Shown here: positions 2,111 through 7,710 of the stretch, one piece after another
How positions within the stretch are numbered: the stretch's first letter is position 1
Layout: each line of letters opens with the position of its first letter
Assembly (NCBI GenBank): GCA_942492935.1
Contig: OW818654.1
Location: forward strand, 3,301,113-3,365,112
DNA: 64,000 bases
Source of the DNA: an uncultured bacterium
GTDB taxonomy: Bacteria > Bacteroidota > Ignavibacteria > Kapaibacteriales > UBA2268
Direction of reading: 5' to 3'
Program-made: the position numbers and the translations under genes
The notes under the pieces: model-generated
What the model saw: only the letters and a program-made list of their open reading frames with translations
What the model was told of the DNA's origin: nothing
Databases searched by the model: none

Positions 2111-3388
2111 CTATGGTAATAGCTGTTTTGTAGTCTTTCCATAAGGAATTGTTTCGGAAAATGGAATTGCAATACCAGCATTTTCATCTCTACCTTGTAA
2201 TATGTATAGTGGATTTGAACTATCCATTTCATTAACAGCTTGACTGCAAAGTTTGCCAATATCACCGCCTTTTAGTCGATTCCAAATTAAAGTTAGTTTC
2301 ATATCTGGAAACATAGTCGCCATTTCATAATCTCCATCGCTATCGACAGCTGAAAAAATTGGGTCCCAGTTTTTCTTTAAATCATTTTTAATAATTTTAT
2401 TGATAGCTTCAACTTTACCATATCTTTGAGTTTTGAACCAATTTTCCTTATATTTTGGTAATAAAATGCCATCTTTTGTTTCAAGTTCCATCGCAATTAT
2501 TCTATCATTAGGTACATTATAGCCGAAATTGCCTACTTCAGAAAATGCTTCAACGACTGGCTTAAAACTTGCAGAAACAACGAAAACACTAATTCCATTT
2601 CGTTCAAAGGTAGAAATGAGATTCTGCATTTCAGGTAATACTCTTAATCCTGTTTTGAAAGAATATTTAATTTTTCCTGCTTTTGTATCGAAATTATCTG
2701 GTGTTATCCATTCTTCTTTGCTTAATTTGTTTGCCAATTCATAAGAAATTACTTCTTTAGCCAAAGATTTAATTTCATTTATACTATGACCTGCCAATAA
2801 TTCAATTACCCAAGGATAGCCATAAGCCGCATCTATTCCACTTGTTCCGCAATAACCATCATAAAGAAAAGCTAATTTAGTAATAAAATCAAAATAATAA
2901 GGAGTTTGCTTAATTTCAGCAAGTGTTTTATTGCCTTTTAAACCAACAAAATTTTCATATAGAAAATTATAATCAGTTATCAAATCCTCATTAATATCAG
3001 CTAATTTAATATTATTGAAATTACTTGATAAATTTGTAATACCATTAATTTCATTTTTCAGCAAATTACTGAATTCATTTTTTGTTAATTTAAATTTCAG
3101 ATTTGTTAGTTGATAGCGCATTACAGCTTCTTCTACATCTAAAAATGCACAAGTTTGGTCCCAATCCAATACAACATAAGATGGCTTTTTAGCATCGTAA
3201 TACTTGCCACCAATACCATAGTTATTAATAAGTTGATTGAGTAAAGTATGATTTCTGGCAGACCAATTCATTTTGTCTAATCCATTTGCATTATTTAAAA
3301 CATTATTCACAGTATTATCACTATTGCATCCAAATATTAGAACCATGATAAACCCAAAAACAAATTTTAAAGCAATATACTTTTTCAT
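2111..3388 (-). CDS. HAD-superfamily hydrolase lipoprotein (phosphoserine-phosphatase-like)
   Basis: HAD motif I LDWDQT, motif II VVSAS, motif IV-like DSDGD; lipobox IFGC. ATG at 3388 preferred over the track's TTG at 3418. Confidence 0.75.
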   Translation of the reverse strand: MKKYIALKFVFGFIMVLIFGCNSDNTVNNVLNNANGLDKMNWSARNHTLLNQLINNYGIGGKYYDAKKPSYVVLDWDQTCAFLDVEEAVMRYQLTNLKFKLTKNEFSNLLKNEINGITNLSSNFNNIKLADINEDLITDYNFLYENFVGLKGNKTLAEIKQTPYYFDFITKLAFLYDGYCGTSGIDAAYGYPWVIELLAGHSINEIKSLAKEVISYELANKLSKEEWITPDNFDTKAGKIKYSFKTGLRVLPEMQNLISTFERNGISVFVVSASFKPVVEAFSEVGNFGYNVPNDRIIAMELETKDGILLPKYKENWFKTQRYGKVEAINKIIKNDLKKNWDPIFSAVDSDGDYEMATMFPDMKLTLIWNRLKGGDIGKLCSQAVNEMDSSNPLYILQGRDENAGIAIPFSETIPYGKTTKQLLP

Positions 3389-3451
3389 AATTAAGCCAAG
3401 AATAAATTTTAAATTCAATTTGCTGAAATACGTTTCAATTCACAAATTCAT

Positions 3452-5002: not shown

Positions 5003-6937
5003 TTAAACTAATCTTGAAAACCTTTTGTTTGAATTTGGAAAATCAATTCCCATTGCGAATGTTGTTATCAAAGCCAAGAATATAGGATTTATCATCAATT
5101 CCAAGCTGAAATTTGAGATACCAGTATGATTTACAGTTGGTAATGAAGTAATAAATATTCCAATTAAAACGCTTAATATTGATAACCATTGATAAATTCT
5201 TAAGCCATATTTAATTTCAGTTTGCGATTCTCCTCTAAAAGATTCTTCAACGAATCTTGCAATTCCTGCAAGAATCAGATATAGTCCAGCAAGCATTTCG
5301 AATCCGACTCCTCCTATGTATAATCTAAAAAGTAATAATCCTATAAATATATTTCCGATAATAGAATACAATTGCGTAGGATGTAAATATTCACCTTTTA
5401 AATTTGAAATTCTGATTACTCTGGATTTTGGATTGAAAAATCTAATTCCTACTTTTTCACCAGCAATACTGCCATGACAGCACCCTTGAACTAAGCAACG
5501 AAATCTTCCAAATAACTGTATCCAAGGTGCTGCTAATGCGTAAGCACCAATTAGCAGAATAAATGAATTATCAAAAATAATTGAAGATATTAAAGCACCA
5601 AAAATTGTTCCAAGTACTCCACCATAATAACCAAACGGTCTTAGTAATTTTGGAGAACCTTCAATTAATTGAGCCCACAATCCTGCTCCTATCAAATTAC
5701 TTAATCCAATTATTAAAATCTGAAAGAAAAAATCTTTTCCCAATACCAATGAAATAATTGTAATTCCAACAAAAACTCCTAAACCTGCATAAAATCCGTG
5801 ATTAATAATTCTGATTTTTCCAAAATGCCACTCTTTCCAAGAATTTGCAATTTTTTCAGTAAATAGTAAAGTCTTTGTCAAATATAATTCATAATTTATT
5901 GAAAAGAAAGCAATAACTACACCGAATATTACATCTGCAATTGAATGAACTCCTGTTGTTATACAACTAATTGAAATCAAAGTTGCAAGTAAATACCAAA
6001 GTAATTTCGATTGTTTTTTGAACGTAATGTAAAAGTTAGCTACAATATATGCGAAAATAACATGAAATGATGGAAATGAAGATAGTTCACTATCTAAACC
6101 TCTTTCCCATAATATCATTTCGCCTAAAAATGATTCTGGTATAAATTGTTTATGAGGTGCATAAAATGGAATAACATAATATACAAAAATACCAATAATT
6201 GTAGAAATCCATGTAATAATTGCAAATTTTCTCAATTCAAATTTTTTATTTAGTACCAATGGGATAGATAGAACAAGTGGATAAACTAAAATGTAAAAAA
6301 TATGTGTGAACTCAATTACTGGAATTGTATTCTCCCATTCGAAATATGATGAAAGATGTATAGGTGATTTACCAATCCAAATAGCTGATTCATAAAGAAT
6401 TCCCCAAGGTAATAAGACAACTAAGTAAATTGAGATTTTATCCCAAATTGTTGCTTTTTCTTCAGAATTTATTGGAATTTTCAATAGTGGTTTTATTCTG
6501 TCTTTTCCAAAAAGTTCGTCAATACTTCTATTTTCGTATCCCCAAAGCAATGAAATTACTGATAAGAAAAGTATAGGACTTGCAAGCCAAAATCCAGATT
6601 TGGATTGAAAAAATACTGATAAACCGAAAGATAACATAATTGCACCAGTATAAGCAGGATGAGCAATATACTTGTAAATTCCATCATGAACATATTTTTT
6701 GGGTGGATATAGATTCATAGGTAAACCATCACCTTTGAACTTTAGATTTGCAAATGCAACCAACATCAAAATAAAACCCACAACCATCAATAAATACTCA
6801 ATATTAAAGAAATTAGGCACTTTGAGAAGTACTTTACTTTCTGTTGAAATTGACCAGAAAATCAAAATAGCTGGAACTAAAACAACAAATACAAATCCAT
6901 AAAGGAATTTGCCAATTTTTTGATTAATTACTTCCAT
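5003..6937 (-). CDS. PEMT/ICMT-like + PAP2-like + Lgt-like fusion membrane protein
   Basis: N-term G.G.P...G.Y....HPAY (PEMT/ICMT); middle SFPSFHV and GVHSIADV (PAP2); C-term GRFRCLVQGCCHG, HPTQLYS, RFVEESFRG (Lgt family). Confidence 0.75.
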   Translation of the reverse strand: MEVINQKIGKFLYGFVFVVLVPAILIFWSISTESKVLLKVPNFFNIEYLLMVVGFILMLVAFANLKFKGDGLPMNLYPPKKYVHDGIYKYIAHPAYTGAIMLSFGLSVFFQSKSGFWLASPILFLSVISLLWGYENRSIDELFGKDRIKPLLKIPINSEEKATIWDKISIYLVVLLPWGILYESAIWIGKSPIHLSSYFEWENTIPVIEFTHIFYILVYPLVLSIPLVLNKKFELRKFAIITWISTIIGIFVYYVIPFYAPHKQFIPESFLGEMILWERGLDSELSSFPSFHVIFAYIVANFYITFKKQSKLLWYLLATLISISCITTGVHSIADVIFGVVIAFFSINYELYLTKTLLFTEKIANSWKEWHFGKIRIINHGFYAGLGVFVGITIISLVLGKDFFFQILIIGLSNLIGAGLWAQLIEGSPKLLRPFGYYGGVLGTIFGALISSIIFDNSFILLIGAYALAAPWIQLFGRFRCLVQGCCHGSIAGEKVGIRFFNPKSRVIRISNLKGEYLHPTQLYSIIGNIFIGLLLFRLYIGGVGFEMLAGLYLILAGIARFVEESFRGESQTEIKYGLRIYQWLSILSVLIGIFITSLPTVNHTGISNFSLELMINPIFLALITTFAMGIDFPNSNKRFSRLV

Positions 6938-7710
6938 TTTACTACCTCAGATATTACATTTCCAGAAATTATCTTATTATTTATTTCAATACTTCCTTTA
7001 GAAAATACTTTTTTTTCATGGATTTTTGAAACTGGTGTCATAGAAAATTTATCAATAAATGGAATATTACTCAATATACCATTTAAGATAAAACTATCTC
7101 TAATAATAAATAGAGGAACAAAATACAAGGTTAGATTGTTGAATTGTAATTTTTGTTCATCTATAATAGCTGAATTATATTCTACTCCATTATGGATTAC
7201 TTTGATTAATTGATTCTTTCCCTCCCAAATTATCCACACGATATAATGATGTTCAGAGATAAATCTACCCCAATATAATTTGTCAAATCCAAGATTCCAC
7301 GGCTTTTGAGTAAGAGTTAATTTTTCTACATAACCTACTCCATTCACTAATTCCTTTGAGTTAATATTCACAAATCCATCAGCGTTTGGACACAAACACT
7401 CCCACAATACTGAACTGTCATTTTCAGGTGATAAATCTGCAGTTATCGGTTTTGATTTAAAAATCCAATTAGAATTAAGATTAATATAATTATTATTCCA
7501 AGTTAAAGTTTTTTCATCATAAATCGGAAAACTTTGATTTTTGTAATAATTATTCTGGAACAAAGTATCATCAATACAATTGTAATAAATATTCATAAAT
7601 CCAAGTTTTAGTAAATTCCATTTTAGTTTTGCAGAATAGAGGATAACCACAGATTTATCCTTAGAAACACAGTCTAAATAGTATTTGGTTAAACGAAATT
7701 TTTCTTTCAT
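6928..7710 (-). CDS. hypothetical protein (Trp/aromatic-rich, predicted beta fold)
   Basis: 260-aa ORF overlapping the start of the Lgt fusion by 10 bp; no motif recognised with confidence. Confidence 0.6.
   Translation of the reverse strand: MKEKFRLTKYYLDCVSKDKSVVILYSAKLKWNLLKLGFMNIYYNCIDDTLFQNNYYKNQSFPIYDEKTLTWNNNYINLNSNWIFKSKPITADLSPENDSSVLWECLCPNADGFVNINSKELVNGVGYVEKLTLTQKPWNLGFDKLYWGRFISEHHYIVWIIWEGKNQLIKVIHNGVEYNSAIIDEQKLQFNNLTLYFVPLFIIRDSFILNGILSNIPFIDKFSMTPVSKIHEKKVFSKGSIEINNKIISGNVISEVVKWK

Follow-up and report, generated by a model that had tools for sequence, protein, structure and literature searches.

Four genes lie on the reverse strand between positions 2111 and 7710 of a 64,000-nucleotide stretch of DNA (the window) from an uncultured bacterium (Bacteroidota; Ignavibacteria; Kapaibacteriales; UBA2268), corresponding to positions 3,301,113 to 3,365,112 of contig OW818654.1 in GenBank assembly GCA_942492935.1. 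An earlier note, made from the sequence alone, had described them as a putative lipid-modification operon centred on a membrane protein of 644 amino acids that joins PEMT-, PAP2- and Lgt-like modules. The three-domain protein was confirmed here; the conserved unit is two genes, the fusion and a partner of 260 amino acids encoded directly upstream, and not a four-gene operon. The probable function of this two-gene module is the synthesis or remodelling of a membrane lipid. The genes and features concerned are as follows.

6928..7710, reverse strand: gene for the 260-amino-acid partner, with an AttH/CrtC fold and without a signal peptide
5003..6937, reverse strand: gene for the 644-amino-acid membrane fusion, supported by Pfam, an AlphaFold2 (AF2) model and more than 1600 relatives
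6928..6937, reverse strand: stop/start overlap from partner to fusion, 10 nt, ATGGAAGTAA, read from the sequence
6503..6796, reverse strand: PEMT/ICMT-type methyltransferase domain (residues 48–145); PEMT 33.7 bits, conserved loops on the side rich in lysine and arginine
5897..6307, reverse strand: PAP2_3 domain (residues 211–347) by Pfam; H292/H331/D335 triad, predicted to face outward
5147..5830, reverse strand: Lgt-like domain (residues 370–597); match to 5azb, hhalign alignment and reversed charge bias
3452..4960, reverse strand: gene for a weakly GT-C-like membrane protein of 502 amino acids, outside the conserved module
2111..3418, reverse strand: gene for a HAD-type phosphatase lipoprotein of 435 amino acids, outside the conserved module

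All three domains of the 644-amino-acid protein scored above their Pfam cut-offs: PEMT at residues 48–145 (33.7 bits, cut-off 25), PAP2_3 (PF14378) at residues 211–347 (60.6 bits, cut-off 27) and LGT at residues 371–596 (67.1 bits, cut-off 24.9). The PAP2 model PF01569 was also above its cut-off (36.6 bits), and ICMT, with 20.3 bits, was under its cut-off of 24. The AF2 model (predicted local distance difference test, pLDDT, 86.1; predicted template modelling score 0.88) contains 18 transmembrane helices and its Lgt and PAP2 folds were matched to solved structures, so that the proposed PEMT-PAP2-Lgt triple fusion was borne out; the motifs on which the proposal had leaned (SFPSFH, GCCHG and HPTQLY) are all present in the translation. 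Sequence searches of the PDB, in which either the protein or its profile served as query, returned only LpxE, a match that was insignificant. The proposed translational coupling to an upstream gene of unknown function agrees with the 10-nt overlap ATGGAAGTAA at 6937–6928. Literature searches identified no paper on the PEMT-PAP2-Lgt architecture, with the Lipocone paper having Lgt and PAP2 in other contexts only, and no characterised example was found.

This architecture is shared by more than 1600 relatives (protein clusters) at E ≤ 0.001, nearly all of them 640–650 amino acids long, and at least 549 stretches from contigs sampled at one genome per species encode a relative. Carriers belong to the Bacteroidota, Ignavibacteria, Chlorobi, Gemmatimonadota, Acidobacteriota, Nitrospirota, Myxococcota, Planctomycetota, Zixibacteria, Methylomirabilota and Desulfobulbales, and include at least two cultured organisms, Paenimyroides tangerinum and Minicystis rosea (Myxococcota). 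Clustering of the open reading frames (ORFs) of 80 related loci (3041 ORFs) placed the fusion in all 80 and the partner adjacent upstream in 76; a divergent partner was found in 2 further loci (hhalign, 91% probability), and the last 2 begin at a contig end. The conservation of this neighbourhood, which the earlier note had suggested examining, is thus complete: the pair is adjacent in 78/78 loci with upstream DNA, across at least 10 phyla, with the two gene ends overlapping or adjoining in most. No other neighbour family recurred in the 80 loci except an ABC-2 exporter pair in 3, most other large ORF clusters being alternative-frame ORFs within the partner and fusion genes. The exporter pair (ATPase and permease) lies inside or directly before the module (L031:7722–9139, L048:8561–9945 and L062:8588–9966), in different phyla. 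Of 30 close relatives, only the same-genus genome and two genomes belonging to other families yielded the fusion, indicating that its distribution is patchy.

To our knowledge, Lgt has been described only as the enzyme that opens bacterial lipoprotein maturation, facing the periplasm. The fused domain shares with Lgt (PF01790, 5azb) a seven-helix body, an N-terminal hairpin and a head; it matched E. coli Lgt 5azb with a Foldseek probability of 1.0 and aligned with it in VIA-align over 230 residues (Z 16.8, root-mean-square deviation 3.5). Profile–profile alignment with hhalign of 30 family members and five canonical Lgts, the latter taken from the source genome and from relatives, gave 98.9% probability over 224 columns. 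The fused domain carries in addition an extra eighth helix and a conserved DFPxSxxRF tail, up to residue 644. A search of the source genome, a single contig of 4.49 Mb, identified a separate canonical lgt of 264 amino acids about 830 kb away, which scored 227.7 bits by comparison with 69.8 for the fused domain; on the NCBIfam Lgt equivalog model the fused domain scored 51.4 against a cut-off of 334 and is therefore a member of the superfamily and not an equivalog. The 644-amino-acid protein is not the cell's Lgt, and the presence of the canonical gene elsewhere in the genome supports the earlier view that this locus does not serve ordinary lipoprotein maturation. The hhalign alignment gave the following residue correspondences between E. 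coli Lgt and the fused domain.

Arg143: R478, kept
Gly154: G489, kept
His196: H519, kept
Arg239: R561, kept
Glu243: E565, kept
Arg246: R568, kept
Tyr26: H380, replaced
His103 (HGGL motif): Y438, replaced
Gly145: R480, replaced
Asn146: C481, replaced
Glu151: C486, replaced

R478, R561, E565 and R568 are present in 81/81 sequences, and position 438 is a tyrosine in 77 of these and a phenylalanine in 4. The signature motif of canonical Lgt, GRLGNFINGELWG, reads GRFRCLVQGCCHG in the fused domain, which has the family motif GRxRCxVQGCCHG and has gained an invariant Cys-x4-Cys-Cys-His cluster; in all, the Lgt-like part has eight invariant arginines in addition to this Cys/His cluster. In E. coli Lgt the C3–O bond is modelled as being activated by Arg143 and Arg239, Glu151 binds the phosphatidylglycerol head group, and the mutants Y26A/F/Q, H103A/N/Q/R/Y, G145A/I/V and E151A/Q are inactive (Mao et al., PMC4728403). 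By this alignment, the fused domain has kept the bond-activating core of Lgt and has had its donor-selecting residues replaced.

Lgt-family genes are also multiple in the relatives, with 2–4 matches per genome. One of them, in genome G013 (L011:1387–2151), encodes a stand-alone Lgt paralogue of 254 amino acids (162 bits) with the signature GRVGCFLAGCCYG, close to GRFRCLVQGCCHG; the fused domain may descend from this free-standing form or be its cousin, and the N-terminal charges of the paralogue suggest the normal orientation. In another relative, G023, which already has the fusion, a second long open frame (C119:3803–4468; 625 amino acids, LGT 88 bits) may be a paralogous fused form.

The distribution of charged residues points to an unusual orientation of the Lgt-like domain. 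Across 30 homologues of the fusion, the predicted inner loops have 33.9 lysines plus arginines by comparison with 5.9 in the outer loops. The loops on the catalytic side of the Lgt-like domain have 18.1 lysines plus arginines and 9.6 aspartates plus glutamates, with 0.9 and 1.5 respectively on the opposite side; canonical Lgts of the relatives show the opposite bias, with 6.2 and 10.6 on the catalytic side and 11.8 and 2.0 on the other. The canonical bias fits E. coli Lgt, whose periplasmic head is negatively charged (PMC4728403). The linker between the PAP2 and Lgt-like domains (residues 348–379) is modelled as an amphipathic helix and a hairpin without a hydrophobic span, and the Lgt-like hairpin, the head loop (residues 485–520) and the R561–R568 region would therefore be inside. 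Canonical Lgt has a periplasmic active site, its N-terminus out and its C-terminus in, and the computed arrangement of the fused domain is the reverse; the Lgt-like domain is thus apparently inverted, with a predicted cytoplasmic active site. The same model would place the PAP2 triad on the outside, where other PAP2 enzymes have it, the methyltransferase loops on the inside, with access to S-adenosylmethionine, and both termini of the 644-amino-acid enzyme in the cytoplasm. A cytoplasmic location is also the more plausible one for the invariant Cys/His cluster, whose three cysteines and one histidine would fit a reducing compartment better. The fused domain differs from Lgt in being inverted, as judged by charge bias, in being joined to two other enzymes and in being invariably paired with a predicted cytoplasmic protein. 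The earlier suggestion of a pathway channelled through the three sites fared unevenly: the three domains stand, but simple channelling is doubtful because the methyltransferase and Lgt-like sites would be in the cytoplasm and the PAP2 site in the periplasm.

The PAP2 domain shares its fold and a predicted outward His-His-Asp triad with the PAP2 lipid phosphotransferases and phosphatases (8ijq, 9vj4, 9ivc, 6ebu and PgpB), and its best Pfam model, PAP2_3, is that of the Aur1-like branch. PAP2 structures aligned overall at Z 10–13, the leading VIA-align matches being SMSr 8ijq (Z 13.2), inositol phosphorylceramide synthase 9vj4 (Z 13.1), LpxE 6ebu (Z 13.1) and Aur1 9ivc (Z 12.6), such that phosphatase and transferase matches were tied at Z 13.1–13.2. 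Unlike the PAP2 phosphatases, the domain has no visible C1 motif: no KxxxxxxRP string was seen in residues 259–291, where R279 is invariant. The triad residues are present in 79 (H292), 78 (H331) and 80 (D335) of the 81 sequences, the triad being intact in about 97% of sequences, and the domain is degenerate in some members; in P0191 and P0257 the triad has been lost while the methyltransferase and GRxRCxVQGCCHG motifs are kept. The N-terminal domain shares with the PEMT/ICMT (Ste14) family (PF04191, PF04140) a PEMT profile match above cut-off and conserved HPxYxG, glutamate and FG elements; this signature (HPxYxG...E135...FG) is kept in 77–80 of the 81 sequences. The usual PEMT/ICMT motif is RHPxY, and in the fusion family the arginine before HP is not conserved. 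JGI annotation assigns the N-terminal domain to the Ste14/ICMT group.

The 260-amino-acid partner was modelled with high confidence (pLDDT 93.3) as the double beta-barrel of the AttH/CrtC superfamily, which includes CrtC, kievitone hydratase, Fsa2/Phm7, the 25-phosphosteroid lyase and the archaeal hydroxy-GDGT (glycerol dialkyl glycerol tetraether) synthase Hgs. Foldseek matched it with probability 1.0 to Fsa2/Phm7, kievitone hydratase 7a0t, AttH NE1406 2ich and the 25-phosphosteroid lyase 9fzn, and the query-normalised TM-scores to 2ich, 7a0t, 7e5t and 9fzn were 0.54–0.63. Known proteins with this fold act on isoprenoid or polyene chains, by binding or by hydration. The partner differs from the solved members in its length (260 amino acids by comparison with 320–380), in having no Pfam sequence match and in its own set of invariant residues (D13, Y25, W103, E129, W147, W159, W162 and K234); the catalytic residues of CrtC are His239, Trp241, Tyr266 and Asp268 (PMC4717167). 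Among 47 members of the partner family, which comprises 816 clusters at 50% identity, none had a Pfam match and none had an N-terminal hydrophobic run or signal-like N-terminus. Look-up in the ESM Atlas returned only clusters named 'hypothetical protein', one of which has CrtC_C on 11% of its members.

Three metagenomic proteins of 854–906 amino acids (P0162, P0191 and P0257) are natural fusions in which the partner barrel directly precedes the methyltransferase domain. They show the partner and the membrane protein to be functionally tied, and place the barrel on the N-terminal, predicted cytoplasmic side. The overlap of the partner gene with that of a membrane-lipid enzyme resembles the arrangement of hgs and ted in archaea, where an AttH-like hydratase encoded by a gene overlapping that of a lipid desaturase hydrates the tails of membrane lipids (bioRxiv 10.1101/2025.10.20.683597). 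From its model and family sequences, the partner is predicted to be a soluble cytoplasmic protein of AttH/CrtC fold with a putative catalytic role.

An isoprenoid link and a carotenoid lead were followed and set aside. Genes of the squalene/phytoene synthase family are present in 31/31 relatives, whether or not these have the module, and do not discriminate between them. The carotenoid lead came from one same-order relative (G023; L018:7223–8695), in which the fusion is immediately followed by a gene of flavin amine-oxidase/CrtI-like type; this neighbour did not recur in the 80 loci.

The two genes downstream of the fusion lie close by, with intergenic gaps of 42 bp (644- and 502-amino-acid genes) and 33 bp (502- and 435-amino-acid genes), and a promoter and terminator scan found no terminator-like site between the four genes; for these reasons they may be co-transcribed in the source genome. 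The same scan gave 51 promoter-like sites with 50.2 expected, a result that is uninformative as the consensus is probably unfit for this lineage. The GT-C-like label of the 502-amino-acid protein could be retained only weakly: PMT_2 (E=0.021, 15.5 bits) is below its cut-off of 26.1, but among nine relatives, precomputed matches include PF13231 in three and PF11028 in one. The 435-amino-acid protein, with a probable start at ATG 3388, does have the features of a HAD lipoprotein, namely a lipobox (LIFGC) and the HAD motifs DWDQT (DxDxT) and DSDGD, together with weak HAD-IB matches under cut-off. No relative of either protein was present in the 80 related loci. In the same-genus genome the fusion is followed instead by SSB, DUF1207 and OmpA-family genes; the HAD gene, which among the 30 relatives was found only in this genome, lies there on another contig. 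All nine relatives of the 502-amino-acid protein are in unrelated neighbourhoods, and none of the five same-family genomes that encode such relatives has a full-length match to the fusion. The absence from the 80 loci, the unrelated neighbourhoods and the differing distributions led us to reject a linkage of these genes to the module. Neither the proposed four-gene lipid-modification operon nor the suggested pathway to a lipid-anchored glycoconjugate is supported; both genes appear to be bystanders, outside the conserved system. Beyond them, the forward strand (361–1689) carries, convergent with the HAD gene, a gene for a metallophosphoesterase of calcineurin-like type (Pfam Metallophos, 55.2 bits) that has a lipoprotein signal; the two exported phosphoesterase lipoproteins, encoded tail to tail, may function in phosphate scavenging.

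On balance we favour, with slightly better than even confidence, the explanation that the two-gene module is an uncharacterised lipid-building or lipid-remodelling system at the cytoplasmic leaflet, with the GT-C-like and HAD genes as bystanders. In such a system the soluble partner would serve the Lgt-like and methyltransferase sites, which would act jointly on the cytoplasmic leaflet. The donor for the Lgt-like domain would be a phosphate-linked lipid that is not phosphatidylglycerol; the domain would cleave its C–O–phosphate bond and pass its alkyl or glyceryl group to an acceptor in the cytoplasm or inner leaflet, which would be a small molecule or lipid and not an exported lipobox cysteine; the methyltransferase could then methylate the product, with the barrel partner delivering or hydrating a hydrophobic chain. 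After flipping, the PAP2 domain might work at the outer leaflet, trimming or transferring a phosphate head group; since some fused forms have lost the triad, this step would be accessory. In some organisms the ABC-2 exporter might move the product.

Other explanations can be set against this one. A CaaX-like cytoplasmic lipidation, in which the inverted Lgt-like domain lipidates a protein cysteine (possibly one of the partner's) and the ICMT-like domain methylates, would agree with the predicted cytoplasm-facing position of both sites, with the Ste14/ICMT placement by JGI and the sub-threshold Pfam ICMT match, with a nearly invariant partner cysteine (Cys105, 45/47) and with the fact that Lgt chemistry is thiol alkylation (PMC4728403). 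We nevertheless regard it as unlikely, as PEMT outscores ICMT, which is below cut-off; Cys14 of the partner is found in only 27/47 family members and there is no terminal cysteine motif; the natural fusions already tether the partner and make an anchor needless; and the partner fold is that of lipid and terpenoid enzymes. Less probable again is an ordinary redundant second Lgt, fused to phospholipid-turnover domains and serving a subset of lipoproteins such as the downstream HAD protein. Tested E. coli mutants at the positions of His103, Tyr26, Gly145 and Glu151, all replaced here, are inactive; the charge bias is inverted, the obligate partner is predicted to be cytoplasmic, and the HAD lipoprotein is encoded in 0/80 related loci. 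These points outweigh the Pfam LGT match above cut-off, the lipoprotein gene 1.6 kb downstream and the frequency of Lgt paralogues in relatives.

A lineage-specific operon of all four genes, making a lipid-linked glycoconjugate, also seems improbable to us. The common strand, the gaps of 42 and 33 bp and the lack of a terminator-like site are what it would lead one to expect, but it is at odds with the occurrence of the downstream genes in 0/80 loci, with the SSB, DUF1207 and OmpA-family genes in their place in the same-genus genome, with a GT-C membership below threshold and with the five same-family genomes that have 502-amino-acid relatives and no full-length fusion match. We likewise give little weight to the idea that at least one domain is catalytically dead and that the 644-amino-acid protein functions not as an enzyme but as a lipid sensor, scaffold or transporter: invariant polar or charged residues at all three predicted sites, maintained across at least 10 phyla, are typical of active enzymes, even though some fused forms are without the PAP2 triad, the Lgt-like domain departs from canonical Lgt at several essential residues and an ABC exporter lies beside the module in a few loci.

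Several points weigh against the preferred explanation of a lipid-building or lipid-remodelling system at the cytoplasmic leaflet. The topology follows from the positive-inside rule and helix counting on a predicted model, and solved methyltransferases were not among the structure matches listed for the whole, large 644-residue model. The 80 loci were retrieved with patterns including the CCHG and WAQ motifs, making the 81/81 conservation of CCHG partly circular, and that of WAQ likewise; support for the motif independent of this retrieval comes from the word-search set and from P0162, P0191 and P0257, which were found via the partner and read GRxRCxVQGCCHG. Stand-alone Lgt paralogues of the relatives, apparently in the normal orientation, have GC and CC variants of the motif as well (L011), and for this reason the cysteine motif alone is no proof of new chemistry.

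A more specific version of the favoured lipid-system explanation is correspondingly speculative, and we consider it possible rather than probable: the module may represent a new lipid route at the cytoplasmic leaflet, in which an inverted Lgt-type enzyme moves a diacylglyceryl or alkyl group from a phosphate-linked donor onto an acceptor that is not a protein and methylation follows, one conceivable product being a phosphorus-free betaine-type, ether or thioether lipid with a tail handled by the partner; alternatively it may be a bacterial counterpart of the CaaX pathway.

The database names 'prolipoprotein diacylglyceryl transferase' and 'Ste14' given to these fusion proteins are misleading. 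The cultured carriers Paenimyroides tangerinum and Minicystis rosea put the module within experimental reach, and its carriers include phyla that are studied for their unusual membrane lipids. If the proposal is true, an Lgt fold that has been re-tooled and inverted would represent undescribed membrane-lipid biochemistry of common environmental bacteria.

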